Assembly: GCA_963748615.1 (NCBI GenBank)
Contig: CAVVJQ010000002.1
Location: 17,718 to 81,717 of the forward strand
Direction of reading: 5' to 3'
DNA: 64,000 nt
Origin: an uncultured Thermoplasmata archaeon
GTDB taxonomy: Archaea > Thermoplasmatota > Thermoplasmata > UBA10834
The number at the start of each line of letters is the position of its first letter. The stretch's first letter is position 1. Under the pieces are notes generated by a model that worked only from the letters and a program-made list of their open reading frames with translations, was not told where the DNA came from and searched no databases. The position numbers and the translations under genes were made by a program. Positions 28,701 to 52,449 of the stretch are shown in pieces.

Positions 28701-31065
28701 ATGTGCCACTGGTCATCTCATACCAGTGTTGCCAGTTGAGGCTCATGAAATCCCACATGTCGGGAGTGTACGCGAACCCGGCGATAGATATGCCAATCTC
28801 GGCGGAGGTGTCGCTGACATAGAGAGTCATCGAATGGGGTATCGCGAACACCTCTGAGCCCACTATCGAATAATCCGAACCTGTGAGATCGAACGATATG
28901 TTCCTGGAACCCTCGTACCTGCAGTATACCCTGTAGTCCTTGACATAGATCGGCTGGCCACCATCTGTCTCGAGGTCGAGGGTCACCTCATGCGCGTCGG
29001 CCATGTAGATGTTCAGTTCGACTGTCTCGAGCATGCCGACACTGACCGTATCGGATAACACGTAGGCATCCGAGTAGGTGTACAGGAGTTGATGGCCCAT
29101 CGAATGGACCGCGTATGATCCTGACGGGAGGAAGAACGTGGCCGGCGGCACGGCGCTTATCATGCCCCGGTAGCCCATGGCAAACGACGCATCTGGGAGG
29201 TCATACACCCAAACGCCTCCGTAGGGGTCGAACACTTCCCGTCCGGACATGTCGTACACATGGACGTTCAGAGTGCTCAGGATGACGAACCCGAACGGTA
29301 TGGTCAGATGGCCAGTGCTAGCCTCCATCTCCAGTGTGCCTGCGTAGTAGCCCTCGTCGATCAAGGCCGCAGGAAGGTCTACTGTGAGCGTGACAGACCC
29401 CGAGCCTCCGGAGGGAATAGACAGTGAAACGGGAGACGAGCCTGACAGATCGGTCTGAACCGGGTCTGGCAGAGAGCCATTGGCTGTGAGCGAGAAGAAG
29501 TCGACCGAGGATATCGCGAACGATGCCGACGAGCCGGTGTTAGTGACCGACACGGTCTGCGATGAGGAGCCTGCGAGCCCATAGGAAATGAGTGGCGTGG
29601 ACGAGAACATGGTGGCCTCCGCAGCTCCAGGAGCCCACATCCCGCCAGCACCGGCAGCCCATAGCGATTCGTTGAGCAGCAAAGCACCGCTCACCACCGC
29701 CGACTTCACGTATGATGGTGTCCAATCAGGGTGCAACTGGAGCAGCAACGCGACGGCACCGCTCACATGAGGTGTAGCCATGGATGTGCCGCTCAGGCTG
29801 GCATATCCAGTCGGTGAGCTTATGACAGTGCCTGAGAAGGGCACGGTGGACACGATATCCACGCCTGGAGCCGATATCTCGGGCTTGACATTCATCTCGG
29901 GAGTGGGCCCGCGCGAGCTGAAGGGTGCGAGGTTACCATCGCCGTCCACGGCTCCGACCGTGATCGCGCTCGGCGCAAGTCCTGGTGTCGCGACGGTCCC
30001 CAGGGATGGGCCCTCGTTTCCGGCTGCGACGACGACCACCACCCCGGCATCAACGGCCCGCTCGACTGCCTGGCAGACAGGGTCGTCCGTGCCACCTGCA
30101 CCACCTAGGCTCATGCTGATGATGTCCGCGTGATCGCTCGTGGACCCGTCACCATCAGGGTCCATGGCCGCATCGATCGCTTCTATGACATCGCTCATGC
30201 TGCCAGAGCCGCTCGCCCCCAGCGCCTTGTACGCCAGAAGCTTGGCATCAGGTGCCACGCCAGGCACAGTCCCGTCAGCGGCTATCGTGCCGGCGACATG
30301 GGTGCCATGACCGTTATCGTCCATAGGGTCGGCGTCGTTGTTCACGAAATCGTATCCGCCGATGACCTTGTATGATGGGCCGAACCCACCGCCCAGGTCG
30401 GGGTGCATGTAATCGATGCCTGTGTCGATGACAGCCACCACTATACCCACGCCTGTGACCGATACGCCCAATGGATCGGTCATGACCCAGACCTCGTCCG
30501 CGCCTATCTTGCGGACGCCGTCTGTGCCAGTCGCGTTGAGTGCTAGGTCAGGATATATGCTGAGGCTCGGTTCCGACTGGATCAAGGATTCGATAGTGCC
30601 CAGGTCCAGGCGGGCGGAGAAGCCGTTCAGGCTGTGTGTGAATGTCTTCAGCGAAGAGACTGGTTCAAGCGGGTCATCGTTCTGTGCCCTAAGGGCGGAT
30701 GCAGAAGCATACTGGATTGCTTTCGCGAGAGGCGCGAAGTCATCGACATCATACGGAAGCGAGACGATCACGTCCACATAACCGTCGTCGTCCGCGAGTG
30801 CGGACCAGTCCCATGAACAGGCAGATGCGGGATATTCGTATGAGTCAGTGGCGCGTGACACATCCATGTCGGCACCACCGGCGGATGATAGGATGGACGA
30901 ACTGACGATAGCGAAGGATGAGAGTGAAAGAATGAACACGACGAGAAGTGGGAAGAGCCGCCCGGCTATCACACCCCTCTCGGGGGATGTCCTCAGGAGC
31001 AGACCCCTATTCCCGTGGGCCTCCGATAGTGACGGGTTATCTCTATACAAGAGTGACATCTCCAA
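25714..31065 (-). CDS. giant subtilisin-like serine protease (peptidase S8) with propeptide and a long array of Ig-like domains
   Basis: Catalytic triad motifs VAVIDTGIDYMHPDL (Asp), HGTHVAGTIAA (His) and SGTSMATPHVSGA (Ser), with oxyanion Asn in VVAAGNEGP. There is an N-terminal signal anchor. More than 1100 aa of beta-rich repeats follow (for example AYDLADNTAEDSFAFTMDL). Confidence 0.9.
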   Translation of the reverse strand: MEMSLLYRDNPSLSEAHGNRGLLLRTSPERGVIAGRLFPLLVVFILSLSSFAIVSSSILSSAGGADMDVSRATDSYEYPASACSWDWSALADDDGYVDVIVSLPYDVDDFAPLAKAIQYASASALRAQNDDPLEPVSSLKTFTHSLNGFSARLDLGTIESLIQSEPSLSIYPDLALNATGTDGVRKIGADEVWVMTDPLGVSVTGVGIVVAVIDTGIDYMHPDLGGGFGPSYKVIGGYDFVNNDADPMDDNGHGTHVAGTIAADGTVPGVAPDAKLLAYKALGASGSGSMSDVIEAIDAAMDPDGDGSTSDHADIISMSLGGAGGTDDPVCQAVERAVDAGVVVVVAAGNEGPSLGTVATPGLAPSAITVGAVDGDGNLAPFSSRGPTPEMNVKPEISAPGVDIVSTVPFSGTVISSPTGYASLSGTSMATPHVSGAVALLLQLHPDWTPSYVKSAVVSGALLLNESLWAAGAGGMWAPGAAEATMFSSTPLISYGLAGSSSQTVSVTNTGSSASFAISSVDFFSLTANGSLPDPVQTDLSGSSPVSLSIPSGGSGSVTLTVDLPAALIDEGYYAGTLEMEASTGHLTIPFGFVILSTLNVHVYDMSGREVFDPYGGVWVYDLPDASFAMGYRGMISAVPPATFFLPSGSYAVHSMGHQLLYTYSDAYVLSDTVSVGMLETVELNIYMADAHEVTLDLETDGGQPIYVKDYRVYCRYEGSRNISFDLTGSDYSIVGSEVFAIPHSMTLYVSDTSAEIGISIAGFAYTPDMWDFMSLNWQHWYEMTSGTSTAFMVEASADLQYLLAWEFDSIDSSMPSTLTWDEDDAAVFETKYDIPGTVSDPWCNWGTHKAMGGDATFYIRRDTDTSLNPFFSGLTRTTIVTGTFSELYFPRNVMGGYSERQFFVADYDYVLQAAVAAGIYIPDRNYVTPLDPTFEEQRLGSGPFYPSLFTENTEDTMVLYHPLLRDQSGARVGGTVIPSMNLYRNGGLVGIYQLSEYLARPDAQRVLDLFGEGSYEARISYSPTSEISSNVAMELGFSVPSVDRDPPMVTGLEMSQRFVPGSAVALSLDVIDTMSSVSVAISWRAGSTDSWESLAVSSSGSTYSTSIQTTTATTSIDLMIIVTDSYSNYMSAVITSASLPEIPVVFELAPKTSTVEYRDATVTVVLEGQLTDMSGNPLSPTAAVPIELYSGDRKVAMLLDDYVLGTTHTHDGQILFQWMLNPTSLFTGTGQNVQVTATFDLGIYESVTITFTLTSIMSDAVAPVIELVSPEDGSLIASGAIIDLDVIDDGEVEVLYSVDGGSYVTLAEPWDISTSSWSDAVHSLAVTVMDDDGFTVTASYSFDVDASAPELEIIQPIMASQVPIGFSIVISVSDSHLSTVAYSVDDSDFVTIPSPYVVDMTGWAIGMHVVVATAMDSVGHESSTSVYFEIVNATLVAMLASPEDGSYVHSGTPLQILIYSSGNITCSWSDGGPWSILPTPYIISTEGWDEGAYDISVNAADDIGGSSEFSFSFTIDDTPPEISLIWPEIDAYVTPGDIVSFQVTDDNMDYAVWSVLGISETTSSGTFTVSLSSVNIDGSFSMNVFAYDLADNTAEDSFAFTMDLYDPVTGIVGVASGESIMEGEDMVLQASDSHLKTVTLSFDGGDAVTGYPGMIIETDALTLGWHALVLVATDMSGRITVNELSIYIDGTPPQTQLAGPVEFVTGGTLVLTITATDDFGIAEGVVYYELKDGGYGSIPMTLSGSELTATLPSQVLWDGMDVYVSVYDLAGNCRGERTCIRC

Positions 31066-32376: not shown

Positions 32377-32451
32377 TTTATTTCGAGTGTAAATAGATTT
32401 GCAACAGGCGGCTATAAAAACCGCCGCCTGTCTGTGAAAGGTTTCCTAGTC

Positions 32452-32901
32452 TCATCCTGTGGCTTGTTCGAAGTACACTGACGCGGGCCCGTCGAGTATC
32501 ACGAAGTACGCCCTGCCCTGGGTGACGGTGAAGTCACTATCAGAGCCAGAATCGTGGAACCCGGGTATGAAGCTCTTGTACGTGCCCGACTCAGGATCGA
32601 AGTACGATATCGCATACACCCTCGCGCCATGTATCGCATCTGCAATCGAGCTCGCGGTCGTCGGGGCAAGTTCCGTGTATCCCATTATGTTGACACCGCT
32701 GCTCAACGCGCCGACTGCATTCGCAGGCAGATCGCCAATCAGCGTGAACACAACCTCGCCGCTAGTGGTCAGGAAGTATCCGACGCCCAGTTCGATCTCG
32801 AAGTCGTCTTCAACATCGCCTGGGGTGTGGAACCCAGGTATGAAGCTCTTGTAGGTTCCGTTGACTGTGTCGAACTTGCTGATCGAAAGCAGCGTCAGGT
32901 C
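32452..32901 (-). CDS. C-terminal module of the giant adhesin (two copies of an unassigned ~70-aa domain containing YKSFIPGFH), in the +1 frame relative to ORF 32810..39283
   Basis: The frame is open from 32901 (just after an in-frame TAG at 32904..32902) and reads DLTLLSISKFDTVNGTYKSFIPGFHTPGDVEDDFEIELGVGYFLTTSGEVVFTLIGDL...ISYFDPESGTYKSFIPGFHDSGSDSDFTVTQGRAYFVILDG. The ORF track lists only the last 99 aa (32452..32751). Confidence 0.55.
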   Translation of the reverse strand, partial: DLTLLSISKFDTVNGTYKSFIPGFHTPGDVEDDFEIELGVGYFLTTSGEVVFTLIGDLPANAVGALSSGVNIMGYTELAPTTASSIADAIHGARVYAISYFDPESGTYKSFIPGFHDSGSDSDFTVTQGRAYFVILDGPASVYFEQATG

Positions 32902-35900
32902 CTACCGCAGTCGCGAGGCCCGAAGCACTCAGGCCGCCCGCGATCACGAGCGGGGAAGACCACAGGTTCACACCAGCGTCGAGCACGAACTTGATCTCGG
33001 GGTCCGGCGTCGGCAACATGTTGCCGAAGTCGATCCTGATCTGGACCGGTCCCATCGGGAACGGATAGATCATGCTCATCGTGCAGATCGGTCTGGTCGC
33101 GTAGAACCCGTACTGAAGGGTCTCGTTGACCCAGTACGTGCCCGGAAGCAGCTCGTCGAACTCGTAGTATCCGATGTTGTCGTAGTTGTCCGTGTACTCG
33201 ACACGGTCCACATACACGCCCGTGGTGGTCCAGCCCTGCAGGGTTATCTCCCAGTTGCCCAGACCGTACTCGTCATCGTCGAACAGTCCGTTAGGCCAGT
33301 ACGGGTAGTAGTCGCCATAGGTGTCGAGGAACTTCCAGCCGAACACGGTCGCGTACCTCACATTGCCGATGTTGACCCAGATGTCGAAGTACACCATCGC
33401 ACCTGCGACGCTGATGTGCACGGGCATCGGGGTCGTCGGGGCCCAGTCGGGCCAGAGGATCTCGTAGACATCGTACACGCCAGGCTGCACTTCGTCGAAG
33501 ACGTACTTGCCGGTGCCGTCCGTCACGTCGGTCCTGTACACGTACACGCCCTGGTCGGTGTAACCCTCGAGCACGATGGTCCATCCGGACAGGCCAGGCT
33601 CGTCGCCGTCCATCCAACCATCCAAGTTCTTGTCGTAGAACTTGTAGCCCTCGACCACTCCGAACACCGCGTTGCCGAAGCTCACGCCGGCCGCTGTGCC
33701 GCTGAGCATGTCGACCACGACCGAGGCCGGGGTCATAGGCACCCATCCAGAGGGCGCGTACTCCAACCTCTCGGACACGACATATGTCCCCGCTGGCAGG
33801 CCCGCCACGGAATAGAATCCGTTCGAGTCCGTCAGGCGGGTGAAGTTGAGCCATCCGCCCTTGACCAGCGTGCCGTTGATCCATATGACCCAGTTGGCCA
33901 GGCCCGGCTCGTCGCCGTCCTTGAGACCGTTCATGTTCCAGTCGTAGAACTTCTGACCAGTCACCTGTCCGAGCTTGAAGTTGCCGAACATCAGCTGCCT
34001 GAACATATCTCCCGAGATGACATCGAGTGTCATCGTACCGTCCTCAGGCGTCACATGCATCCAGCCTTCCCTGTCCTCCTCGACCACCAGGTACTCGCCT
34101 GCTCCGGTCAGGACGACATAGGCCTTCCCGTCGACATCCGTGTACACGACGAGCGGTGCATCGAAGCACGGCCCTGTGACCGTGAACTCCCAATCCTCGA
34201 TCGGGCGGTCGCCTGCGTTGTACACACCGTTCCCGTCCACATCCTCGTACTTGAACAGGGTGATGTCCACATTGTGGAAGTTGCCGAACGCCGGTATCTC
34301 GATGCAATCACCGGAGTAGACTGTGACGATCGCCCAGTCCAGGGTCGTCGGGGTCCAGTCTGCCCGGGCTTCCTCGTAGATGTAGTACCAGTTGCCCGCA
34401 AGCCCGCCGAAGTAGAACATGCCTTTCGCATCGGTGTGGGTCACATGCGTGCCAGGTATCGAGTCTATCACCATGTAGATGGTCCAGCCTTCGATGGCGG
34501 GCTCGCCCTCGTCCCAGATGCCGTTGCTGTTCAGGTCCTCGAACTTGTAGCCGTAGATGCTTCCGAGCTCGAAGTTCAGGAATGTATGTATCCTGATGCT
34601 CGCGCCCGAAGTCATTACCACGGTCTCGGATGGGTCATTGGTCGCGATCCAACCAGTCTTGGCCTCCTCGGATACCACATATATCCCGGGCCCGAGGCCG
34701 CAGAAGCAGTAGTAGCCGTTCGCGTCCGTAAGGGTCATGTCCAAGAGCATGATCGCGCTCATCGCACCCTCGGGCGTCTCTATCACGCCAGTCGTTATGG
34801 ACAGGTAGATCGTCCATCCAGCCAGAGGTGTGTCGCCCTCGTCCAGGATCCCGTTGCCGTTGACATCGACATACTTGTAGCCGTCTATGCAGCCCAGCTG
34901 GAAGTTGAAGAAGTCCACGCGCGACTCGGTGTGGCCTATGATGACCACTTCGACCTCATCTGAAGAGGTCGGGATCCAGCCGCTCTGGCCGATCTCCCAG
35001 ACAAGGTACGTCCCGCTCGGCAGTCCGGAGAACTCGTAGTAGCCGTTCGCGTTGGTCACTGTCCATCCGGTGAGATACTGAGGCGAGACGCACTGGAACC
35101 ATATGGTCCAACCGCTAAGGGCAGGCTCTCCCTCGTCCCAGACGCCGTTGCCGTTCAGGTCGTTCCACTTCCAGCCGAATATCTTACCCAGCTTGAAGTT
35201 GCCGAACTCGATGACCTGCAGCTCCTGACCTCCGAGCACGGTGAAGTCCATCGCGCCGTTGGTCTGGGTGATGCAGGTCCAGCCGATCCGCTGCTCCTCC
35301 TTTATCATGTAGAAGCCCGCGTGGTCGATCTGGAAGCCAGCGTAGCCGAACTCGTCGGTGTAGTCCACCGCGACCAGCACCCACTCGTCATCCTCCAGGA
35401 CATACAGCTCGAACATCCAGCCCTCGATCGGGACATCGCCCTCTCCAGGACCGTACCATCCGTTCGCCAGGATGTCATCGTACTTGAAGACCAAGACCGT
35501 CACGATCTCGAAGTTGCCGAACATCAGGCAGACAGGCTTGTCGCCAGATATCACAGATGTATCGAGCGTTCCGGACAGCGGGTTCACATGTACCCAGCCT
35601 GCGCGGTCCTCCTCGGTGACTGTGTATGTGCCAGCCCTGTCCACGCGGAAGTAGCCGTAGCCGTCCGAATCCGTGCATACCATGGCGTTGGTCACACCAG
35701 GCCCGGATATCGTGAACACCCAGCCCTCGATCGGCAGGTCGTACATCTGGTCATAGACTCCGTCGCTGTCACGGTCGTGGTACTTGAACACCACGATCCA
35801 GACATCCTGGAAGTTGCCGAACATGAGCGTCGCCGGCTGAGAGCTCGATGGCGTCTCGACCGTCATTGCGCCGCTTGCGGGGCTGATGTGAGTCCATCCC

Positions 35901-38900
35901 TCGCGGTCCTCCTCGACCACGGTCCACAGGTCGTAGTGGCACACGTAGAAGTACACATGCCCGCTCGAGTCCGTGCAACCTGAGTCGTACAACGCACCGG
36001 ACGATGTCAGCAGCTCGAAGTACCATCCCTCGAGCGGCGTGTCGCCGTTGTCGTATACGCCGTTGGAGTTCGCATCCTCGTACTTGAACACGTCTATCGT
36101 GACGCATCTGAAGTTGCCGAACTCGAACACATCGGGCGTATCGCCTGATGAGGCGAAGTACCAGTATCCGCCGTCTCCAGGTGTGATCTGGCACCAGCCA
36201 GCCTGGAGGTACTCAGATATGTACCACAGGCCGCCCTGGGTCATCACCATGGTCGCGTAGCCGTCTGAGCCAGTCACCGCGGTGAGGTAGCCACCGTAGT
36301 CCATCGAGTACGCCTCGATGGTCCATCCGGCCAAGGGTCTGTCACCCGCATCGTATACGCCGTTGGAGTTCGCGTCCTCGTACTTGAAGACCGTGATCTC
36401 GACGTCCTCGAAGTTGCCGAACATTATCGGCTTCAACACGTATCCAGACATCAGCGAGAGCTCGGCGTGCGTGGATGTCGTAGGTGTCCAGCCGGCTTGG
36501 ACCAGCTCGTCCACCGTGTACATCCCAGCGCGGTCTACCACGACCGACGCGTAGCCATCTGGCCCGGTCACTATGACCGTGCCTGATCCGGCCCACGGAC
36601 CTGTCACGAGGAACTCCCAATCAGCGAGAGGTCGGTCCTCTTCGTCATAGTATCCATCGCCGTCCATGTCCTCGAACTTGAACACGGTTATGGTGACATC
36701 GTGGAAGTTGCCGAACATCTGCAGGGGCACCTCGGTCCCAGACTCGATGCTCACCAGGCTCATGCCGATGGCAGGGTTGATCGCTGTCCAGTCTGCGCGG
36801 TCCTCCTCTACGAGGGTGTACATCCCGGACCTGTTCACTGTCAGGACCAGCATGCCGTACTCGTCCGTGTAGCCGGAGTAGACCGTGCCGTCATCGCGTA
36901 CGAGCTCGAAGTACCAGCCCTCGAGCGGGTTGTCGCACTCGTCGTATACGCCGTTCGAGTTCACATCCTCGTACTTGAATATCGGGACATCGACATCGAG
37001 ATAGTTGGCGAACCAGACATCCATCTGCCTGTCACCCGACAGCACCTCGATCTCGTAGTATCCGCTCAACGGGAGTATGTGGGACCATCCGTCCCTGTCC
37101 TCCTCGACCACGACGTATGTGCCGGCAGCGCATACGGTCCAGTGTATGTAACCGTCCTGGTCCGTGTAGCCCGAATCGAGCAGCAGCCCGTCCGGACCGT
37201 ACAGCTCGAAGTACCAGCCCTCGATCGGCTCGTCACCGAACGATGGGTCGTACCAACCGTTGCTGCACTTGTCCCAGAACTTGAACACGACGATGTCGAC
37301 GCACTGGAAGTTGCCGAACTCGAACCAGTACACCTCATCCATCGACTCCTCCTCGAGCGCGACGCCCGAGTATACCCAGAAGGTATAGTAGCCGTCCACT
37401 GGAGATATCATGCACCAGCCGTCCTTGAGGTCCTCGGTCAGGCCCCACAGGTCGTGCTTGCAGAAGGTCACTTGAACCGTTCCGTCCGGACCGGTCACGA
37501 CCTCCCTGTAATCGCCTCCGAGGCTGCGCAGATAGAATGTCCATCCAGACAGTGGCACATCGTCGCCGTCGAAGACACCGTTGCTGTCCACGTCCTCGTA
37601 CTTGAATATGGTTATGGTGACGCACTCGAAGTTGCCGAACATGACAACCTTCTGGCTCACATAACCGGACAGGACATCGACGTACTGGATGGCGGGTGTT
37701 ATGTTGCACCAGCCAACCTGCATCAGCTCCTCCACAGTGTACAGACCAGCGGCCGTCACCTCGACGGATGCGTAGCCCGTCCCATCAGTGACCAGAGTCA
37801 CGACGCCACCAGGCACGCCGGGCCCGGAGACGACGATCTGCCAGCCAGCGAGAGCGACATCGCCCTCGTCGTATACGCCGTTGGAGTTCACGTCCTCGTA
37901 CTTGAAGACCGTGATGTCCACATTGTGGAAGTTGCCGAACGCGGGCACCTCGCGACAGTCGCCCGAGTGTATCGAAAGAAGTGCCCAGTCCTGGGTCGTC
38001 GGGGTCCAGCCTGCGCGAGCCTCCTCCCAGATGTAGTAGTACTCATCGGGCATCAGGCCGCTGAACTCCCAGTACCCGCCCTGACTAGTAGTGGTCGAGT
38101 AGGTGGTGGGGTTCTCGTCCCAGACCATGTAGATGGTCCAGCCCTCGATGCCGGGTTCGCCTTCGTCCCAGATGCTGTTGCTGTTCAGGTCCTCGAACTT
38201 GTAGCCCCAGATCCTGCTGAGCTCCACATTGAGGAACGGATCGAGGGACACATCCGAGCCTGAGGATATGGGCACAGTGTACGACGCTGTCGTCATGTGC
38301 ACCCAGCCTTCGCGGCTCTCCTCACTCACGACATATGTGCCGTATGTGAGGTCCGTGAACTCGAAGTACCCGTCGGAGTCCGTCATCGTGGTATCGGACA
38401 TAGGTCCGGACAGTGTGATCAGCCAACCTGCTATCGGCATGTCGCCCTCGTCCAGGATACCGTTGCCGTTCATGTCCTCGTACTTGTAGCCGCTTATCGT
38501 GCCCAGCTCGAAGTTGAGGAACAGGAACTTGTACTCCACCGGCTCCATGCACATCTCAGGCTCGAAGACTATCTCGTACGGGGTCGTGGCCATCCAGCCA
38601 TCGGGCATCATCTCGTAGACCAAGTAGGTCCCGGGCAGTATGTTGTAGCATGTCTCCCAGTAGCCGAACTCGTCAGTGACGAGCTCGATATACACGTGCA
38701 CGCCATCGTTCCTGACACCCTCGACGACGATGGTCCAGCCAGGTATTCCGACCTCGCCATCGTCCCAGATGCCGTTGCCGTTCATGTCCTCGACCTTGTA
38801 GCCCCAGAGGCAGGAGTATGGCACGTTCCCGAACTTGATGTCCACGATGTCGCTGCCAGAGCAGACGACCAAGGTCACATTGTCCGGAGTCGTGTGGTAC

Positions 38901-39283
38901 CAACCTTCGCGGGACTCCTCGCTCACGATGTATATGCCTGGCAACAGGTTCTCGAACGACCAGTAGCCGTTCGCATCCGTCGTGATGGTTATCGGACCGA
39001 TGTATGTGCAGCCGACGAATGACGACGGGAGCGGGAACGTCCCGTCATTGAGCCAGCCCTCGAGGGTTATCTCCCAGTTGGGTATCCCAGGCTCGTTGCC
39101 GTCCTTCGTGCCGTCCATGTCCCAGTCGAGGAACTTCCAGCCATCGATGCTACCATATTCGACATTGCCGAACTTGACACAGGTGACCTCGGAACCCTCG
39201 ATCAAGGTGACCTCCTTGCTGAGAGGCGTCACATTGTACCAACCGGGTTGGAGTATCTCCGTAATCGTGTACACGCCAGGCAT
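32810..39283 (-). CDS. giant adhesin, middle ORF: about 21 SdrD-B-like / Cna-B-type repeat units; no signal peptide of its own
   Basis: Repeats follow the pattern G(Y/W)K(F/Y)xDxNGNGxxDxGExxxxGWxIxL...TDxxGxYxFxxLxPGxYxVxE......FGN(F/V). The ORF begins in mid-domain (MPGVYTITEILQPGWYN). The last ~35 codons (AAFDQQVRHSQRNLQELHTWVPHPRRC) look out of frame. Confidence 0.8.
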   Translation of the reverse strand: MPGVYTITEILQPGWYNVTPLSKEVTLIEGSEVTCVKFGNVEYGSIDGWKFLDWDMDGTKDGNEPGIPNWEITLEGWLNDGTFPLPSSFVGCTYIGPITITTDANGYWSFENLLPGIYIVSEESREGWYHTTPDNVTLVVCSGSDIVDIKFGNVPYSCLWGYKVEDMNGNGIWDDGEVGIPGWTIVVEGVRNDGVHVYIELVTDEFGYWETCYNILPGTYLVYEMMPDGWMATTPYEIVFEPEMCMEPVEYKFLFLNFELGTISGYKYEDMNGNGILDEGDMPIAGWLITLSGPMSDTTMTDSDGYFEFTDLTYGTYVVSEESREGWVHMTTASYTVPISSGSDVSLDPFLNVELSRIWGYKFEDLNSNSIWDEGEPGIEGWTIYMVWDENPTTYSTTTSQGGYWEFSGLMPDEYYYIWEEARAGWTPTTQDWALLSIHSGDCREVPAFGNFHNVDITVFKYEDVNSNGVYDEGDVALAGWQIVVSGPGVPGGVVTLVTDGTGYASVEVTAAGLYTVEELMQVGWCNITPAIQYVDVLSGYVSQKVVMFGNFECVTITIFKYEDVDSNGVFDGDDVPLSGWTFYLRSLGGDYREVVTGPDGTVQVTFCKHDLWGLTEDLKDGWCMISPVDGYYTFWVYSGVALEEESMDEVYWFEFGNFQCVDIVVFKFWDKCSNGWYDPSFGDEPIEGWYFELYGPDGLLLDSGYTDQDGYIHWTVCAAGTYVVVEEDRDGWSHILPLSGYYEIEVLSGDRQMDVWFANYLDVDVPIFKYEDVNSNGVYDECDNPLEGWYFELVRDDGTVYSGYTDEYGMLVLTVNRSGMYTLVEEDRADWTAINPAIGMSLVSIESGTEVPLQMFGNFHDVTITVFKFEDMDGDGYYDEEDRPLADWEFLVTGPWAGSGTVIVTGPDGYASVVVDRAGMYTVDELVQAGWTPTTSTHAELSLMSGYVLKPIMFGNFEDVEITVFKYEDANSNGVYDAGDRPLAGWTIEAYSMDYGGYLTAVTGSDGYATMVMTQGGLWYISEYLQAGWCQITPGDGGYWYFASSGDTPDVFEFGNFRCVTIDVFKYEDANSNGVYDNGDTPLEGWYFELLTSSGALYDSGCTDSSGHVYFYVCHYDLWTVVEEDREGWTHISPASGAMTVETPSSSQPATLMFGNFQDVWIVVFKYHDRDSDGVYDQMYDLPIEGWVFTISGPGVTNAMVCTDSDGYGYFRVDRAGTYTVTEEDRAGWVHVNPLSGTLDTSVISGDKPVCLMFGNFEIVTVLVFKYDDILANGWYGPGEGDVPIEGWMFELYVLEDDEWVLVAVDYTDEFGYAGFQIDHAGFYMIKEEQRIGWTCITQTNGAMDFTVLGGQELQVIEFGNFKLGKIFGWKWNDLNGNGVWDEGEPALSGWTIWFQCVSPQYLTGWTVTNANGYYEFSGLPSGTYLVWEIGQSGWIPTSSDEVEVVIIGHTESRVDFFNFQLGCIDGYKYVDVNGNGILDEGDTPLAGWTIYLSITTGVIETPEGAMSAIMLLDMTLTDANGYYCFCGLGPGIYVVSEEAKTGWIATNDPSETVVMTSGASIRIHTFLNFELGSIYGYKFEDLNSNGIWDEGEPAIEGWTIYMVIDSIPGTHVTHTDAKGMFYFGGLAGNWYYIYEEARADWTPTTLDWAIVTVYSGDCIEIPAFGNFHNVDITLFKYEDVDGNGVYNAGDRPIEDWEFTVTGPCFDAPLVVYTDVDGKAYVVLTGAGEYLVVEEDREGWMHVTPEDGTMTLDVISGDMFRQLMFGNFKLGQVTGQKFYDWNMNGLKDGDEPGLANWVIWINGTLVKGGWLNFTRLTDSNGFYSVAGLPAGTYVVSERLEYAPSGWVPMTPASVVVDMLSGTAAGVSFGNAVFGVVEGYKFYDKNLDGWMDGDEPGLSGWTIVLEGYTDQGVYVYRTDVTDGTGKYVFDEVQPGVYDVYEILWPDWAPTTPMPVHISVAGAMVYFDIWVNIGNVRYATVFGWKFLDTYGDYYPYWPNGLFDDDEYGLGNWEITLQGWTTTGVYVDRVEYTDNYDNIGYYEFDELLPGTYWVNETLQYGFYATRPICTMSMIYPFPMGPVQIRIDFGNMLPTPDPEIKFVLDAGVNLWSSPLVIAGGLSASGLATAVGPDAAFDQQVRHSQRNLQELHTWVPHPRRC

Positions 39284-42200
39284 CAGGTTCTCGAACGCAT
39301 AGTAGCCGGTCTCGTCCGTGACTAGCGTACAACGGTCCTATGACGGTCCCGTTGGTCGCGACACCTTCGAGCACGATCGTCCAGCCGGGCAGGAGCGGTT
39401 CGTTGCCGTCCCTGTAGCCGTTCATGTACTCGTCCAGCCACTTGAAGCCCGTGATGCGGCCGTACTTCGCGTTGCCGAAGTTGACATCGGTCACTTCGAA
39501 CGGTGCGAGCGCGCTCACATCGACGATGACCGTGACCGGCACGGTCGCGAACCATCCGTCCTGAGTCTCCTCTGAAACGCTATATGCGCCGGGGATCAGG
39601 TCGATGAACTCATAGTAGCCGTTGGCGTCGGTCGTCGTGGTCAGATCGACATACATGCCGTTGACATCGTATCCGAACAGGTAGATGGTCCAGCCCTCGA
39701 TGCCGAGTTCGCCATCGTCCCAGATGCCATCGATGTCGACATCGTGCCACTTGTAACCGGATACCGATCCGATCGGCAAGTTGCCGAAGTCGCATGCGAA
39801 GGTCGTGCCGCTACCGACTGCGAATGGCGCAGACGATATGGGCAGGATGTTGATCCATCCCGAAAGCATGACCTCACTCACAGTGTACAATCCAGCATCG
39901 ATACTCTTGAACTCGTAATAGCCGAACGAGTCCGTGAGGCGGGTCTGGTATACGCTGTCGCCCGAGTCGGTCGTACCGCTCAGTACTATGAGCCAGATGT
40001 TCAGGCCGGGTTCGTAAGTGTCCATGTATAGGTTCTGGTTGATATCGACGAACTTATAGCCAGTCACTATGCCGTACTTGAACACAGACCACTCAGCCGA
40101 GTCATCGACCCAGATGTGCTGCTTGTCCTCGCCTTCAGCGACCACTATGTTGTCGAGCGTGCCCACACCTGCCGGGACGACATATGTGTAAGTGATGTGC
40201 TCCGTCGCGCCCACCGCGATCATCGCATATGTGCCGATGATGCCCATGAGCGAGTCGTCGACCGTCACGTTGTACAGGGGCGTGTCGCCCATGTTAGTGA
40301 CGTTCACATAATACGTTATAGTCTGACCGATGTCGGCCTTCTCAGGCCCTATCTTCGTGACCAGTATCTCAGGATGCAGTATGTCCACGGTCCACGAGTC
40401 CGTGTCCGTGACCATGTGCAGCTGGTGATCGAATCCTTCGACATACACAACGTTTGTGAACGGATCAGGCGTCGCCTCAGTCACCAGGTATGACACTTTC
40501 CAGCTGACCGAGAAACCGGGCATGACATCGAAGAACGACTCGGCCCAGCCCAGATCATAGTCATAGACTGTACCGTTCATCCAGACATCCGCTTCCTTGG
40601 GCACCGTCACGGTGATGGTGTAGATGATGGTCTCGCCCACATGAGCGCATGTCACATCGGCCGTCTTCGTGACCTCGATCATCGGGTGAACCACATCCAC
40701 GCTCCATGAAGCGCTTGCGGTGACTTCGTGCAGCTGGTGATCGTACGCCACGACTTCGACCGTGTTCTCGAACGGGTCGACGTCAGGCATAGCCAGCGCG
40801 TATGTGTAATACAATGTCTGCCCTGGCTTCAGGTTCGTGAAGTCCCAGGTCTGACCCAGCATATCGTCCGTGACGGAACCGTTGAGCCAAACATCCGCCC
40901 ATTCAGGGTTCGTCACAGTGATAGTGTATGTGACAACTTCGTCAACTGCAGCGCACTCCAGGTCCGCGGTCTTCGAAACAAAGACCTCAGGGTGCACGAC
41001 ATCGATCGACCATGAAGCCGATGCGGACACCTCGTGTCCCTGGTGGTCCGTCGCCTCCACATATGCGGTGTTGATGAACGGATCGACATCAGGCATAGCC
41101 ATCTCGACGACGTATCTGAGATATTCGCCGGGCTTGAGGTCGGAGAACTTCCAAGCCTCGCCCAGTGTCTGGTCGTAGACCGTCCCGTTGAGCCATACAT
41201 CGGCCCAATCAGGGTTCGTCACGATTATCGTGTATGTGACCACCTCTCCGACAGCAGCGCACTCCAGGTCCGCCGTCTTGGTGATCTGCACCTCGGGGTG
41301 AACCACATCTACGCTCCATGAAGCGCTTGCGGTGACCAGATGCAGCTGGTGATCGTACGCCACGACCTCGACCGTGTTCTCGAACGGGTCGATGTCAGGC
41401 ATGGCCAGCGTGTATGTGTAGTACAATGTCTGCCCTGGCTTCAGGTTCGTGAAGTCCCAGGTCTGGCCCAGCATATCGTCCGTGACGGAACCGTTCAGCC
41501 ATACATCGGCAGACTGCGGATTCGTCACATTGATCCAGTAGGTCACGACCTCATCGACAGCTGCGCACCGCTTGTCTGCCACCTTAGTCACATAGACATC
41601 AGGATGCACGACATCGATGCTCCACGAAGATGCAGCGCGCACCTCGTGGTCCTGCGGGTCCTTCGCGTAAACCGTCGCAGTGTTCGGGAGCGGATCTGGA
41701 TCGGACTCGCTGACCGTGTATGTCAGCAGAGGCATGTCGAGCACGATGGTTTCCAGCGAATCGAGGCTCCCGGTCCATATGATGCCGCCGAACATGTCAT
41801 CGGACACCTGGACGAATACCAACGGGGTGTCGTTGCTCGGGTTTGTCAGGGTTATGGTGTAAACGACTTCCTCACCGACCGCGGCGCATGACTTGTCCGC
41901 GGACTTGATGATCTCTATCGCCGGGTGGTAGATGTCGACGGTCCAGTTGTCCCATGCGAACACCTCATGACCCTGCGGATCCGAGGCATACACCAACACC
42001 TCGTTTATCAACGGGTCGGGATCGTTCTCGGTGACCGTGTGCTTGTATGAGCCCGTCCAACTGGTGCCACCGGTGATCCAACCCTCGTAGATGCAGCCGC
42101 CGAACATGTCGTCGTAGACCTCGACATACATCGGTGTGTCTGCATTCGGAGCGGTCACGGTTATCGTGTATGTGATTGTCTCGCCGATCATGGCACACGA

Positions 42201-44906
42201 CTTGTCAGCGGTCTTGTCCACTTCTATCGCCGGGTGGAATATATCGATCTCAACGGAGGCAGAGTCCTCGCGGACATGCCCCTGTGGGTCCTCGGCGACG
42301 ACAGTGGCGATGTTTATTAGGTGGTCCTTGTCCTCGACGGTAACCGTGTGGACGAGCACCATCACATGACTCGCATTCGCGACGAGCGTGCCGGTCCAGA
42401 TAACGCCACCGAACATCAAGTCTGTCACGACCGCGTCCATCGGTGTGTCCGTGCTTGGGTTGCTGACCGTGATCGTGTACTCGACATCTTCACCGATCAT
42501 GGCGCAGGTCATGTCCGAGACCTTGGTGATATCGATCATCGGGTGATAGATATCGATCGTCCACGAGGCACTGGCAGACACGAAGTGCTCCTGCACGTCC
42601 CACGCTTCGACATAGACCGTGTTGATCAACGGGTCGGGGTCGTCTGCCTGGACCTCGTACACAAAAGATCGGTTCCAGTAATCTCCCGACACGAGCTCCA
42701 GTGAAACAGATAGGTCGAGTATGCCATCGGTGACCATGACCCACATTGTCGTGTCCCAGCTCGGGTTGCTCACGTTGATCCAATAGGTCACGAGCTCGCC
42801 GACTTCTGCGCATACCTTGTCCGCGCCTTTGAGCACGCTTATCATCGGGTGATAAATCTCCACCGTGGCGCTCGCCTCGGCGCTCACTTCCAGGTTGATG
42901 ATATCCTCACCAGTGGCCGTGACCGTGTTGACAAGCGGGTCGGTGTGATCCGCTGTCACCATCAGGTCTTTCGGAGGTAGGTCGTACGTTTCGCCCCCGA
43001 GCAGTTCGCCTACGAGCCATGTGCCCAGCAGCGGGTCAGTGATCGTCACATTGTACAGGACCGTGTCATCAGACGGGTTGTACACTGATATCTCGTATGT
43101 GACGGTCTCACCGATCTTGGCACACTCTGGATCGACCACTTTGAACACCACGATCTCGGGGTGCAGGATATCGACGGACCAGCTGGCATCATCTGTCGCT
43201 GTTCTGCCGTATTCGTCCACACCTGTTACGGTGGCCGTGTTGGGCAACGGATCGTCGTCCGTGTCAAGGACTACATGAGTCGCATAGAGCGTCTCCGAGT
43301 CGCCTACTGTCAGCGTCAGGCCGGTCGCTACATCACCGATATCGGGGAGGGAGTCCGTGACGTCCACGCAGAACAGGTCGACTTCGCCCGTGTTCGTGAC
43401 TGTGTACTCGTAAGTCACAGTGTCGCCCACATGGGCGTACTCGGGTCCAGTCTTCTCGATCATGATCTCTGGCTCAGAGATGATGCAGAACATGCACCAC
43501 GCGACGACTATCGGGTAATAACCACCGTGATTGTCCTGGTAAGTCAGATTGGCCCAGTTGTAGTAACATCCAGGCTCGTTGGTGTTGACCGTCGCTGTGA
43601 AGCTCAAATGACCCTCGAGCACAGGGCCGCATCCATCGTATCCGGTTCCGGGCCAGTAGCCCAATGTCCAGTCCCATGTGTCACCAGAGACTGTCGGTGG
43701 GGTTGAGAGAGGCATTGGGGTGGTCTGGACAGATGTCCAGTAGCGGAAGGATGTAGGATCGATGTCCACGACATAGGGGAGGTCGTCGTGGAACACGAGG
43801 CAACCCGCGGCCGCCTGGCCGATGTTGCTCCATGTGATCTCGAACGTTATCTCGTCACCTTCGATGACGGTGCACGGGTCGCACTCCTTCTCCAGAGTCA
43901 TCTCTGGAGGCATCAGGACATCGCCCAGCATGATCGGCACGTCTCTGTGGCCCTCATTGGTTTCTGGGTCCGTCATGACCATGCGGACATGCAATGCGCT
44001 TCCAGGATAGTACGAGGCGCCGAGTCTGCCGGGAACTTCATCCGATACTGCCAGATGCGCGCCGAACCTGACGATCGCGACCTCATAACTCTCATTCAGG
44101 TCGATCGTGAAACCGTATACCCTGATCATCTGGTTCTCGCCTTCGTCCGAAGGCTCGTCTCGAATCCAGCCCTGCGAAGTTATGTAACCTTTCCATGATT
44201 CGGTCACTGAGAATGGCTCATCCGCAGCTGGTAGTGTGTTGTAAGGTGCCTCAGGCGGGTCAGACCAGTACTGTGTAAGGTAATCAATTCCATAAGTCGG
44301 GTTGACTGGCGAGTTCAGATCGACATAGTCGAACCCGATTTCGATCGTGATAGTGGATATGTCTCCAAGATGTCTGGAGCTCAGAACGACGCTCATCGGG
44401 ACGCTGTCGCCTTCGTTATATCCCTTGATGTCGCCCTTGGTCCATCTGTGGAATGGAGCTAGTGTGTAGCCTTCGAGGAATACTCCTGGGTCCCAGAACT
44501 GCGTCGTCGCGACGAGGTCACCGGTTATAAGCACCTGGGTTACCGTCACATTCACTGGCAGCTCATAATTCTCAACCCATTCGGCGAGATATCCATCGAA
44601 AACAAAACTCCCATCGATCTTCGGCGTTTCAGTAAAGGTTTGTATTCCAAGGTCAGGGTGTTCCAGTTCTATCTCCAAAGGAACCCACTTGACGAAACCA
44701 TCACCGAAGATGTAAACCGTCTCCCCGGGAGCGTACTCGTCACTATCGGTCCATACGACTGGATCGGATGTCGCGTTGGCCAAGATGGCCACGAACGACG
44801 TCGAAATCATGACGAGAACGACGATCACCGCTAGAATGCTCGCATACAGTCTCTTTGGCAAACTCCATTGATGCGCAGTGCTCACACTGCTACCGCTATT
44901 TACCAT
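39150..44906 (-). CDS. giant adhesin, N-terminal ORF: signal/TM, ~450-aa unassigned head domain, ~11-12 DUF11-type repeats, first three SdrD-B-like units
   Basis: N-terminal hydrophobic LYASILAVIVVLVMISTSFVAILANA. There are 102-aa repeats such as IYHPAIEIIKSADKSCAAVGEEVVYTITLTNPSNDTP...DPDPLPNTATV. The last ~50 codons (SHGRDRLLCVREPDAWRVHDYG...) are out-of-frame junk overlapping the next ORF. GGGGAGG lies ~8 nt upstream of the ATG. Confidence 0.8.
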   Translation of the reverse strand: MVNSGSSVSTAHQWSLPKRLYASILAVIVVLVMISTSFVAILANATSDPVVWTDSDEYAPGETVYIFGDGFVKWVPLEIELEHPDLGIQTFTETPKIDGSFVFDGYLAEWVENYELPVNVTVTQVLITGDLVATTQFWDPGVFLEGYTLAPFHRWTKGDIKGYNEGDSVPMSVVLSSRHLGDISTITIEIGFDYVDLNSPVNPTYGIDYLTQYWSDPPEAPYNTLPAADEPFSVTESWKGYITSQGWIRDEPSDEGENQMIRVYGFTIDLNESYEVAIVRFGAHLAVSDEVPGRLGASYYPGSALHVRMVMTDPETNEGHRDVPIMLGDVLMPPEMTLEKECDPCTVIEGDEITFEITWSNIGQAAAGCLVFHDDLPYVVDIDPTSFRYWTSVQTTPMPLSTPPTVSGDTWDWTLGYWPGTGYDGCGPVLEGHLSFTATVNTNEPGCYYNWANLTYQDNHGGYYPIVVAWCMFCIISEPEIMIEKTGPEYAHVGDTVTYEYTVTNTGEVDLFCVDVTDSLPDIGDVATGLTLTVGDSETLYATHVVLDTDDDPLPNTATVTGVDEYGRTATDDASWSVDILHPEIVVFKVVDPECAKIGETVTYEISVYNPSDDTVLYNVTITDPLLGTWLVGELLGGETYDLPPKDLMVTADHTDPLVNTVTATGEDIINLEVSAEASATVEIYHPMISVLKGADKVCAEVGELVTYWINVSNPSWDTTMWVMVTDGILDLSVSLELVSGDYWNRSFVYEVQADDPDPLINTVYVEAWDVQEHFVSASASWTIDIYHPMIDITKVSDMTCAMIGEDVEYTITVSNPSTDTPMDAVVTDLMFGGVIWTGTLVANASHVMVLVHTVTVEDKDHLINIATVVAEDPQGHVREDSASVEIDIFHPAIEVDKTADKSCAMIGETITYTITVTAPNADTPMYVEVYDDMFGGCIYEGWITGGTSWTGSYKHTVTENDPDPLINEVLVYASDPQGHEVFAWDNWTVDIYHPAIEIIKSADKSCAAVGEEVVYTITLTNPSNDTPLVFVQVSDDMFGGIIWTGSLDSLETIVLDMPLLTYTVSESDPDPLPNTATVYAKDPQDHEVRAASSWSIDVVHPDVYVTKVADKRCAAVDEVVTYWINVTNPQSADVWLNGSVTDDMLGQTWDFTNLKPGQTLYYTYTLAMPDIDPFENTVEVVAYDHQLHLVTASASWSVDVVHPEVQITKTADLECAAVGEVVTYTIIVTNPDWADVWLNGTVYDQTLGEAWKFSDLKPGEYLRYVVEMAMPDVDPFINTAYVEATDHQGHEVSASASWSIDVVHPEVFVSKTADLECAAVDEVVTYTITVTNPEWADVWLNGSVTDDMLGQTWDFTNLKPGQTLYYTYALAMPDVDPFENTVEVVAYDHQLHEVTASASWSVDVVHPMIEVTKTADVTCAHVGETIIYTITVTVPKEADVWMNGTVYDYDLGWAESFFDVMPGFSVSWKVSYLVTEATPDPFTNVVYVEGFDHQLHMVTDTDSWTVDILHPEILVTKIGPEKADIGQTITYYVNVTNMGDTPLYNVTVDDSLMGIIGTYAMIAVGATEHITYTYVVPAGVGTLDNIVVAEGEDKQHIWVDDSAEWSVFKYGIVTGYKFVDINQNLYMDTYEPGLNIWLIVLSGTTDSGDSVYQTRLTDSFGYYEFKSIDAGLYTVSEVMLSGWINILPISSAPFAVGSGTTFACDFGNLPIGSVSGYKWHDVDIDGIWDDGELGIEGWTIYLFGYDVNGMYVDLTTTTDANGYYEFIDLIPGAYSVSEETQDGWFATVPVTVIVDVSALAPFEVTDVNFGNAKYGRITGFKWLDEYMNGYRDGNEPLLPGWTIVLEGVATNGTVIGPLYASHGRDRLLCVREPDAWRVHDYGDTPTRLVQCDASQQGGHLDRGFRGHLCQVRQCRIW
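40685..41512. repeat. near-identical internal tandem duplication in the DUF11 array (period about 612 nt, i.e. two 102-aa units)
   Basis: ~40685-40900 and ~41296-41512 align with only scattered mismatches by eye (ggtgaaccacatc.acgctccatgaagcgcttgcggtgac...gtgaagtcccaggtctg.cccagcatatcgtccgtgacggaaccgtt). Protein units 7 and 9 differ at only a few residues. Confidence 0.75.
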
Positions 44907-46179: not shown

Positions 46180-48312
46180 ATGGACGTGCACCCCGAACGC
46201 TCATCATCCCCAGGACGAAGACTGTGCATGATAGCGATTATGCTCCTGGTGGTCCTTTCAGCGATCCCTATCGGGGCGAAGGCAGAGATACCGCACGAGA
46301 ACTACGACCTCGCATCCTCAGACCTCGACACCGTCATCGCACTCCTCAACTCGTCTATAAGATCGTTCGAAGGGTCGCTCAGGGCGCTCAACGAAGAGGA
46401 CACTGCAACGGCTGGAGAGTACATCGACAGGGTGAGCACGGTACTCCGGCCGGTCGAAGGCGTCCTCGAGGACATACAGGATGTCGCAGGGAGCTACGAG
46501 GACCTGAACGGACTGCTGCCTCCGTTCACTTCACTCTACGATTCGACGGATTCGTTCCTTGTGATGGAGGTCGAGCTCCTGGGAGCCAGGAGCGATATCG
46601 TCTCATCGTCGGAACTGCTCAATCTCTCAGATGAGCAACTGATAGAAGCTCTTGATAACATCGAGAGATTCAACTCCCTCGCCAACCGGATGAACTCCAC
46701 GATCGACGAGATGCTGGTCCATGCGCATGAGATCAACGCGCTGACCGTCGATGGCACGACGCCGTTCGTGCCGAACGACCTCATCGAGTTGATAGAGCAG
46801 CTGCGAGACATGATAGGCAAGATCTTCACGGACATGCAGCGTGTGATAGACGAGGACATTCCATGGGACAGCGATGTCTCGTTCATACTGATATGGATCG
46901 AGGATCAGAACCTGTACCTCGGCGAGACGATGGTCGGGGGAGGATACCTGTTCATACACGGCTCGTTCGTCGTCGGCGAGACCGTGAACATCTCCATGGA
47001 CGGCGGTCAGCTGCTTCAGGTCGTGACCGGGGCCGGGGGCAGGTACGCGTTCACTCAGTCGATACCGCTGAACGCCTCCTGGCTCGGCACGCACACGATC
47101 ATCGCGCATGCATACACGGCGAACGGCACGCTCGATTCCGACCCGGTCAATGTGATCATCTCGCTGGTCCCGACGACGATCAAGCTGACAGCGGATATGA
47201 CCGTCATGTCACGGGACGAGGCGGTCGCTCTGCAGGCCAAGCTATCGGACGTCAAGGGCAAGCCACTGTCTCACATGAACTGTTCCCTGGCGATCGATGG
47301 GGAGGAAGCCGCGTTCATAACGGATGATGCCGGCAGCGAGGAGTGGTCACGGACCGGCTCAGAGCTGGGGTACGGTACCCATGTCATGTCCGCATCATTC
47401 CCCGGTGTGTTGCCATATGCTCCGAGTACATCCAGTGATGTGACAGTGGTCGTGGACATACCGACCAACATCACGATCAACCTGTTCGCGGACCGTCTGC
47501 GGAAGGGAGGTCATGTCGTCGGAGACGGCATGCTCGTGTCGAACGGCTCGCAGCCGATGGGCATGCAGAACCTGAGCCTGTTCATCGACGGCGAATACTT
47601 CAGGGACGTCAGGACGGAGGCGGACGGAGTGTTCGCATTCTCCATCAGCACGGACAATCTGACCGTCGGCGCCCACGTGCTCAGGGCGGCATTCGTCCTG
47701 AGAGATGACATATGGAGATACTCGGAGGCAGATGCGAGTTTCGTGATAATCTCGATGAAGTATGCCGATTACCCGTTCTTCCCATGGATCCCTGGCTGGA
47801 GCATCGGCCTTGCCGAGGAGATACCGTATCTGTTCTTCGGAGAGAACGCGTACTACACATGGATGTTCATCGTGCTCGTAGTGGGCGTGGTCATCAAGGC
47901 GCTCCAGGTTAGGAAGGCCCGCAGGGCCAAGGAGCGCGAGCTCGTCCCGTCCCCCGAGGAGGACTTGGAAGAGGGCATGGAGTTCGGACCACAGGAGGAG
48001 AGATATCTGGTGCCGGAGCCTGCGCCTGAGTGGCTTTCAGGGCCGAACGAGAAGATAGTCTGGCACTACAACAAGATGATATCGTTCCTGATGAGAAGGC
48101 GCAAGATCGGGATAACGGACAACATGACTCATTGGGAGGTTGCGAGACTGCTGCGATCGCTCGGCTACTCCGCGACCACCACTACGACGGTCACCGTCCT
48201 TTTCGAGAGGGCGTACTATTCGGGTTCCACGCTTTCCATGGCGGATGAGATCCAGATGGGATCATCGACACATATGATGAAGAGGACCGGGGGTACCAAT
48301 CTTGCAGGCTAG
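46180..48312 (+). CDS. module 2 gene 2: paralogue of 18648..20846 (exported, beta-sandwich units, TM, DUF4129-like tail)
   Basis: Signal IAIMLLVVLSAIPIGAKA and the shared EIPHENYD / ETIPHEQFD start of the mature part. Late TM YYTWMFIVLVVGVVI. The tail MTHWEVARLLRSLGYSATTTTTVTVLFERAYYSGS is DUF4129-like. Confidence 0.6.
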   Translation: MDVHPERSSSPGRRLCMIAIMLLVVLSAIPIGAKAEIPHENYDLASSDLDTVIALLNSSIRSFEGSLRALNEEDTATAGEYIDRVSTVLRPVEGVLEDIQDVAGSYEDLNGLLPPFTSLYDSTDSFLVMEVELLGARSDIVSSSELLNLSDEQLIEALDNIERFNSLANRMNSTIDEMLVHAHEINALTVDGTTPFVPNDLIELIEQLRDMIGKIFTDMQRVIDEDIPWDSDVSFILIWIEDQNLYLGETMVGGGYLFIHGSFVVGETVNISMDGGQLLQVVTGAGGRYAFTQSIPLNASWLGTHTIIAHAYTANGTLDSDPVNVIISLVPTTIKLTADMTVMSRDEAVALQAKLSDVKGKPLSHMNCSLAIDGEEAAFITDDAGSEEWSRTGSELGYGTHVMSASFPGVLPYAPSTSSDVTVVVDIPTNITINLFADRLRKGGHVVGDGMLVSNGSQPMGMQNLSLFIDGEYFRDVRTEADGVFAFSISTDNLTVGAHVLRAAFVLRDDIWRYSEADASFVIISMKYADYPFFPWIPGWSIGLAEEIPYLFFGENAYYTWMFIVLVVGVVIKALQVRKARRAKERELVPSPEEDLEEGMEFGPQEERYLVPEPAPEWLSGPNEKIVWHYNKMISFLMRRRKIGITDNMTHWEVARLLRSLGYSATTTTTVTVLFERAYYSGSTLSMADEIQMGSSTHMMKRTGGTNLAG

Positions 48313-49468: not shown

Positions 49469-49477
49469 CGACCGACA

Positions 49478-49732
49478 TCAGGATAGTATGAGCCAGACCC
49501 GTCTGATCACGATGACCACGAATAGGAAGAGTCCCAAATAGATGAAGTAGTCGATCTTGTCCTTCAGATCGCGTCCGAGTATCCCGTCCGTGAGTTCCCT
49601 GGCCACAAGAAGACCGATGATCTCGAGCGTCAGCAGGACCTCGACGCCGGCGGACAATGAGATTATGATGGACGCCAGGGTCCATATCGAGATGCCAAGG
49701 AACACCTTGTGCGACAACAACATCAGGTCCAC
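49478..49732 (-). CDS. small 3-TM membrane protein, paralogue of 58357..58602
   Basis: 84 aa. Shared motifs LEIIGLLVARELTD / LILIGVLVIRELTD and the C-terminal VIVIRRVWLILS / IIVVRRVWEILS. It is inserted in opposite orientation inside module 2. Confidence 0.55.
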   Translation of the reverse strand: MDLMLLSHKVFLGISIWTLASIIISLSAGVEVLLTLEIIGLLVARELTDGILGRDLKDKIDYFIYLGLFLFVVIVIRRVWLILS

Positions 49733-49867
49733 CGAAGGTCAGGGCTTCAGATAGTACAGGCCCCGCAGACTGAAGATGAGTGCTCGGTATAAGAGATTCA
49801 CGCATGCGGCGGTGCTTGATAGTTGAGAACAGATAGTTTTCATATACAACAACACTCTTCTCATTCG

Positions 49868-50994: not shown

Positions 50995-51016
50995 TCTTCC
51001 CGTCCGGAGGAACTCG

Positions 51017-52438: not shown

Positions 52439-52449
52439 GAGAGAGCTCC

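Follow-up and report, generated by a model that had tools for sequence, protein, structure and literature searches.

A 64-kb stretch of contig CAVVJQ010000002.1 from an uncultured Thermoplasmata archaeon carries a single minus-strand gene, 32452..44906, whose 4,150-residue product is a surface protein of putative fibrillar-adhesin type, and the reading frame of this gene is broken twice, by one surplus base each time. We refer to the whole stretch as the window, and our counts of open reading frames (ORFs), frames, motifs and densities are counts within it. Frame breaks extend beyond the adhesin to the window as a whole: four further +1 breaks, missed by the first-pass annotation of this DNA, lie in three other genes, and each of the six amounts to one surplus base relative to intact relatives. 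Most likely, the adhesin is a new large representative of a known protein class, and its frame breaks are of an ordinary kind.

One gene read in three frames

Three minus-strand frames occupy the adhesin locus: 39150..44906 (ORF1, 1,918 residues), 32810..39283 (ORF2, 2,157 residues) and a third frame (ORF3) that is open from 32901 to a stop at 32452. These frames are as the first-pass annotation described them, and the TAG codons that it reported to close the downstream frames just before each junction are found at 39340..39338 and 32904..32902. When a single base is deleted at 39323/4 and another at 32896/7, the three join into one frame of 1861+2142+147 = 4,150 codons with zero internal stops. 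The parts of the gene, with the junctions J1 and J2, are as follows; L001 denotes an orthologous contig.

39324..44906, minus strand: segment 1, codons 1-1861, with the ATG at 44906..44904; signal or anchor, head, 12 CLIPPER/DUF11-type domains and the first 2.5 SdrD_B units
39323..39324, minus strand: J1; surplus T 39324 or A 39323; TAC GCT A GTC against TAC GCG GTC in L001
39150..39323, minus strand: out-of-frame tail of ORF1; 57 codons of nonsense, then TAG; not real coding in that frame
32897..39322, minus strand: segment 2, codons 1862-4003; remainder of the SdrD_B array and a 39-residue linker (32897..33013)
32896..32897, minus strand: J2; one surplus base; GGA CCT G ACG CTG against GGG CCG ACG CTG in L001
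32810..32896, minus strand: out-of-frame tail of ORF2; 29 codons of nonsense, then TGA
32452..32895, minus strand: segment 3, codons 4004-4150 and the TGA stop; conserved C-terminal module

Comparison with relatives establishes that these parts belong together. L001 (contig JBFYNF010000050.1), a megahit-style record from a Thermoplasmata archaeon metagenome-assembled genome, was found with the C-terminal piece as query. Its adhesin ORF (24..9524) encodes 3,166 residues, the 5' part being cut by the contig start, and the product is collinear with the window protein at 76% identity, passing through J1 and J2 in a single frame. Residues 1-872 of L001 align to frame 1 of the gene, residues 873-3040 to frame 2 and residues 3021-3164 to frame 3, and zero residues are lost at either switch. 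DNA alignment leaves exactly one extra base in the window at each junction (GCTAGTC against GCGGTC at J1, CCTGACG against CCGACG at J2). The repaired protein therefore reads ...IGPLYA/VTDETGYY... at J1 and ...LATAVGP/TLLSISKFD... at J2, and its trans-frame peptides would include ...GPLYAVTDETGYY..., with ...GTVIGPLYAVTDETGYYAFENLMPGVYTITEILQPGWYNVTPLSK spanning J1 and FVLDAGVNLWSSPLVIAGGLSASGLATAVGPTLLSISK spanning J2. About 30 other homologs, for the most part incomplete genes on short contigs, combine the final SdrD_B unit, the conserved ...AIGP(T/N)... junction and the C-terminal module within a single protein.

The ORFs themselves tell the same story. The first ATG of ORF2, at 39283, lies in mid-domain and is not followed by a signal peptide, and the first start codon of ORF3 is 49 codons into the C-terminal module. 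J1 cuts the third SdrD_B unit such that the Lys of its residue triad falls in ORF1 and the Glu and Asn in ORF2. Downstream of J1, 2,289 codons (2,142 + 147) run without a stop, and the ratio of nonsynonymous to synonymous substitution (dN/dS) against L001 is 0.18, 0.24 and 0.33 for segments 1, 2 and 3, with dS at 0.65-0.8. Since the L001 ortholog is collinear, the homologs are continuous, a triad is split at J1, ORF2 and ORF3 have neither starts nor export signals of their own, the repaired frame is free of stops and dN/dS is low, we regard 32452..44906 as one gene, as the first-pass annotation had proposed. Three independent genes would be in keeping with a public gene caller that splits genes on this contig (P0042, described below), but with one SdrD_B domain spanning ORF1 and ORF2, starts that fall in mid-domain or mid-module and relatives continuous across both junctions, we give that reading practically no chance. 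Two details of the first description shift slightly: sense in ORF1 is lost not at ...GVATNGTVIGP but three residues further on, at ...GTVIGPLYA, and of the three SdrD-B-like units assigned to ORF1, two are complete and the third is represented by its first half.

Architecture of the adhesin

The N-terminus, MVNSG...KRLYASILAVIVVLVMISTSFVAILANA, is a signal or anchor helix (about 44778..44855), with a Shine-Dalgarno-like GGGGAGG before the ATG. It is followed by a head of about residues 45-335 (about 43902..44774, minus strand), for which we found no Pfam family match and, by sequence, no relative of solved structure. Next come 12 CLIPPER/DUF11-type domains (40083..43901, minus strand). In Pfam, DUF7507 (PF24346) matches with 178.5 bits against a cut-off of 27 and DUF11 (PF01345) with 156.1 bits against a cut-off of 24.6, and each column of the Lys, Asp and Asn triad is conserved in 75% or more of the 12 units. 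The alignment of the remaining array (33014..40082, minus strand) resolves 23 SdrD_B units of about 100 residues each; SdrD_B (PF17210) scores 384.4 bits, and its separately significant stretches number 12 in ORF2 and 2 in ORF1. Here the triad Lys is present in 23 of 23 units, and the Glu and the Asn of the F.N motif in at least 80% each.

Both arrays carry traces of internal duplication. Residues 2127-2401 recur at 3332-3617 with 54.5% identity, whereas identity to the other units is about 36%, and the offset of 1,205 residues bears out the higher-order block repeat that had been noted about 1200 codons apart. CLIPPER units 8 (residues 1101-1202) and 10 (residues 1305-1406) are far more alike than other CLIPPER units, which points to a putative recent two-unit duplication within that array.

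The head and the C-terminal module match no known adhesive domain; a signal-like N-terminus and a repeat stalk are present, and by its stalk the protein would be placed in the fibrillar-adhesin class. The conserved triad residues suggest that isopeptide bonds may form within the stalk. By analogy with its families, the full-length protein would be exported via its N-terminal signal and would project from the cell surface on a rigid stalk stabilized by isopeptide bonds and Ca2+.

Frame breaks elsewhere in the window

Breaks were detected by scanning the entire window for changes of frame in codon usage, by surveying GC content by codon position and by aligning DNA to orthologs. The four additional junctions, J3 to J6, are listed here; L004 (ERZ25039527 contig_86929) is the closest relative at the J5 gene, with 79-89% DNA identity to the window.

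About 25746 (J3) and 25700-25703 (J4), minus strand: two +1 breaks about 46 nt apart in a neighboring giant gene, 25112..31065
62626..62630 (about 62628), minus strand: J5, in a gene for a polytopic membrane protein of about 550 residues, 61737..63402; GGT GCA G TTT GCG against GGC GCA TCT ACG in L004
59856..59858, plus strand: J6, in an ATP-binding cassette (ABC) transporter ATPase gene with its ATG at 59791 and its stop at 60463; GTC CTG A GAC AGC against GTC CTA AAC CGT in L004

The product of the neighboring giant gene has a subtilase S8 domain, Big_13, a transmembrane helix and a cytoplasmic tail. The ortholog of this gene in L001 is a single continuous ORF of 2,024 residues; alignment placed this protein on the window in two frames, and inspection shows three (...VSVYDLAGN, +1 to VESEHVSAVEVEY, +1 to LSGGSSGSWFTSLAGIISISS...). 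An N-terminus apparently missing from the window gene proved instead to reflect an ORF in L001 that had been called too long.

The J5 gene was first flagged by the codon-usage scan and the GC survey as a same-strand frame change. Used as a repaired query, it retrieved about 50 homologs of about 550 residues at 99-100% coverage, each a single protein; it matches no Pfam family, and a search with it against genome contigs found no relatives. A public 300-residue gene call (P0042), 100% identical to the window, is merely the downstream fragment of this gene. J6 was exposed by comparison with L004, in which the ATPase is intact at 223 residues. The first 22 codons of the window gene are in the other frame: frame 0 runs to the CTG at 59854-56, the surplus base is at about 59857 and frame 1 begins at 59858, with a TGA (59855-57) closing the downstream frame right at the junction.

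Together, the six breaks affect four genes that are unrelated to one another and not confined to one strand; with 57.6 kb of coding DNA in the window, this is about one break per 10 kb of coding sequence. No nonsense codon and no clear -1 break accompanied them in our survey of the window. That four of the six lie in three other genes shifts the weight from an event specific to the adhesin to a property of the sequence record. Four overlapping same-strand ORF pairs (4009/4020, 56390/57151, 51017/52270 and 46180/48302) were considered as further breaks and rejected, being separate genes or shadow frames.

The remaining genes of the window look intact with one exception, an SBP_bac_5-type gene (9030..9878, within 8584..10037, minus strand, start about 9878). 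Its homology ends after about 265 residues, homologs being all at least 620 residues long, and a Big_13 and transmembrane piece lies downstream in another frame (8584..9192). The gene upstream of the truncated one (10019..14758) combines SBP_bac_5, PKD and Big_13. The lesion may be a deletion between tandem paralogs; every other candidate lesion in the window is a simple +1 break.

Origin of the surplus bases

We consider it probable that the surplus bases were inserted in error when the consensus of the assembly, likely a long-read one, was built; if so, the organism would make the full-length adhesin. All six breaks are insertions of one base. They hit a housekeeping-type ABC ATPase as well as a membrane protein that is kept at full length in its homologs. 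According to the P0042 record, the source contig is 455 kb long, a length that suggests long reads. Indels that split coding sequences are the dominant error of nanopore assemblies and are worse at low coverage (PMC8103633). Two related contigs with Flye-style 'contig_N' names are affected as well. In L002 (ERZ25039461 contig_114053), about 10 breaks of both signs within 9.5 kb split the adhesin ortholog into 10 or more called genes. L004, for its part, carries a separate single-base insertion in the J5 gene, and its DUF1616 gene is broken. The public assemblies behind these two look error-prone; the megahit-style L001 has no breaks. Exact-sequence look-ups of window proteins and junction patterns in genome and metagenome collections found no second copy of the species.

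The sequence around the junctions hints at an error-prone context, or else at chance (rough P about 0.01). Exact copies of the 8-mer GTACGCTA number just two in the window, and both stand at a junction and in the same phase (J1, 39323-39330; J4, 25700-25707). Its core GTACGCT has seven copies, all on the minus strand, five of them besides J1 and J4, and the copy at 59784-59790, in an intergenic spacer, shows a one-base surplus relative to L004.

Some observations count against consensus error. The typical nanopore signature is homopolymer deletion, not insertion-only error outside homopolymers. The two giant genes account for 31% of the coding DNA and for four of the six breaks, a weak enrichment (binomial P about 0.08) that could reflect strain heterogeneity that confused the consensus, or real decay. 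The context effect, moreover, is not deterministic, as four GTACGCT copies carry no detectable lesion.

The best-surviving rival, which we hold to be unlikely though well short of negligible, is that the frameshifts are real and very recent mutations. The adhesin would then be a fresh pseudogene or a truncated allele with a 1,861-residue product and a 57-residue nonsense tail; the subtilase, the membrane protein and the ABC ATPase would likewise be broken, and two giant surface proteins would have been freshly lost at the same time. Giant surface-protein genes are often inactivated. The concentration of four breaks in two such genes would fit this, as would the nearby SBP_bac_5-type gene, which also looks truncated, and the sequence itself contains no proof of error. 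However, six independent insertions with zero deletions (sign test, P about 0.03) run contrary to the usual deletion bias, and about 18 kb of supposedly dead sequence has acquired zero nonsense mutations. Both giant genes would have been hit twice, and the J3/J4 pair is +1/+1 and not compensatory. Extrapolated, the breaks would mean that 8-10% of the genes are frameshifted in a compact and otherwise intact-looking genome. As for the hallmarks of a pseudogene, the adhesin frame is disrupted, but relaxed selection downstream is not seen: the 2,142 + 147 codons are open, with dN/dS at 0.24-0.33 against 0.18 upstream, so that any inactivation must have been recent.

Far less probable is that programmed +1 ribosomal frameshifting, or another recoding event that takes one base out of the RNA, brings the reading back into register, so that the full-length protein is made from the DNA as it stands. 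Should the surplus bases be real and the protein still be produced, recoding on this scale would be a major discovery, an outcome that we rate as very unlikely. The common sign of all six breaks, the 8-mer shared in phase by J1 and J4 and the intact downstream frames under selection would speak for recoding, as would a superficial likeness of J1, GCU AGU C, to the yeast Ty3 site, GCG AGU U. The sites are not conserved, however, L001 being in one frame at J1-J4 and L004 at J5 and J6. There is no in-frame stop, shared hungry codon or motif common to the six sites: the zero-frame A-site codons (AGT, GAC, TGT, ATC/GCT, GTT and AGA) mix common and rare ones. The zero-frame tails range without pattern from 8 to about 110 codons, and with a pair of shifts only 46 nt apart in the same gene the losses would compound. 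The same very slight probability attaches to a lineage-wide +1 recoding, ribosomal or at the RNA level, comparable to the genome-wide +1 frameshifting of Euplotes, in which the adhesin would again be made as written.

Four candidate signals were examined in this connection and rejected. The heptamer TAGGACC, at J1 and J2, occurs 7 times against 5.3 expected and encodes (I/V)-G-P, and the surplus base at J1 is 14-15 nt downstream of it. NAC GCT, found at J1, J4 and possibly J2, is not a sufficient signal, as about 10 in-phase copies stand in intact genes. GGWCCTGA, at J2 and J6, has 20 copies, two of them at breaks, and its codon phases at J2 and J6 differ. Rare zero-frame codons past the junctions are uninformative, since out-of-frame codons are expected to look rare.

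Surface adhesin genes are often phase-variable in bacteria, and the first-pass annotation had offered phase variation as a third cause beside mis-sequencing and fresh pseudogenization; of these latter two we hold the first probable and the second unlikely, but a contingency locus with slippage at the junctions can be dismissed almost entirely, because no junction has a simple-sequence repeat or a run longer than 3 bases, none of the surplus bases duplicates a repeat unit, and the entire window has only five homopolymer runs of at least 6 bases.

C-terminal module and 3' flank

The C-terminal 147 residues contain an internal duplication, with GTYKSFIPGFH present twice. Their AlphaFold model is confident (mean predicted local distance difference test score, pLDDT, 88.4) and predicts mainly beta-strands with one short helix; no Pfam family matches, and a fold search against the PDB gave no significant match. 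The module recurs in about 35 environmental relatives. It also exists in a stand-alone version, P0027, on the 301-kb contig L003, where a 291-residue protein consisting of a signal, one SdrD_B-like unit and the module is encoded in an unrelated glycosylation cluster. Because of this version, the module seems to be an independent functional unit, and it may be a wall- or partner-binding domain.

Directly past the adhesin stop codon lies one further element, conserved in L001 (about 9537..9572):

32404..32431, minus strand: inverted repeat ACAGGCGGC..GCCGCCTGT with the loop TTTTTATA

The loop carries TTTT(T)ATA, and the element is probably a terminator, the TATA box of the next small gene, or both.

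Neighboring genes

Paralogous gene sets flank the giant genes at 18648..24026 and 46180..52959, both on the plus strand. Each includes a Big_3_5-domain protein, DUF4350, DUF58 and small membrane proteins; a DUF4129 on the Big_3_5 protein and a MoxR AAA_3 ATPase are found in the 46180 set only. An exosortase/archaeosortase-like gene (24114..25106), with a weak match to EpsH, adjoins the subtilase giant gene. Further along, a 185-residue ORF (55582..56139, plus strand) matches only the C-terminal half of GT4 glycosyltransferases; its GC content is lower (0.495) and its codon-usage signal weak, and it could be the relic of a gene or else newly acquired DNA. A homolog of the MttB methyltransferase superfamily (7090..8538, plus strand) has no in-frame TAG, and TAG is the ordinary stop of 8 of the 35 genes in the window; there is accordingly no sign of pyrrolysine decoding in the window.

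Implications and comparison with known systems

The locus should be annotated as a single 4,150-residue surface protein. The chief value of our analysis is a caution regarding split gene calls: the public calls from the source contig evidently contain split fragments such as P0042, and counts of 'genes' or 'pseudogenes' for this genome will therefore be inflated. In addition, the adhesin would add a large Thermoplasmata example, with 12 CLIPPER and 23 SdrD_B domains, to the archaeal fibrillar-adhesin class.

The breaks resemble the split coding sequences described for nanopore metagenomes (PMC8103633) in that single-base indels divide otherwise intact genes, unrelated genes are hit and related Flye-style contigs are affected too, but they differ in being all insertions, none of them in a long homopolymer. 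With the +1 sites of prfB, Ty1/Ty3, antizyme and Euplotes they share the direction of the shift; unlike those sites, they are not conserved in orthologs and have no common stop or rare codon and no shared phase.

The protein itself has two sets of relatives. CLIPPER (DUF11) and CLIPPER_2 (DUF7507) are stalk domains of fibrillar adhesins, including archaeal surface proteins, and carry a Lys-Asp-Asn triad (PMC12617251). Like these adhesins, the window protein is long, begins with an N-terminal signal and has 12 tandem units with Lys, Asp and Asn at the triad positions. Unlike them, it adds 23 SdrD_B units and a C-terminal module without a family match after the CLIPPER array, its head matches no known adhesive domain, and it has no archaeosortase-type C-terminal sorting signal. 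The SdrD_B array is like the B-repeat stalks of SdrD-type adhesins among the Gram-positive microbial surface components recognizing adhesive matrix molecules (MSCRAMMs), with D.N.NG..D-type loops and a conserved K..E..N in units of about 100 residues. In contrast to the MSCRAMMs, its host is an archaeon, and the protein is without an LPXTG anchor, a serine-aspartate repeat region or an A-domain. SdrD has five B units, and the 23 of the window adhesin are far more.

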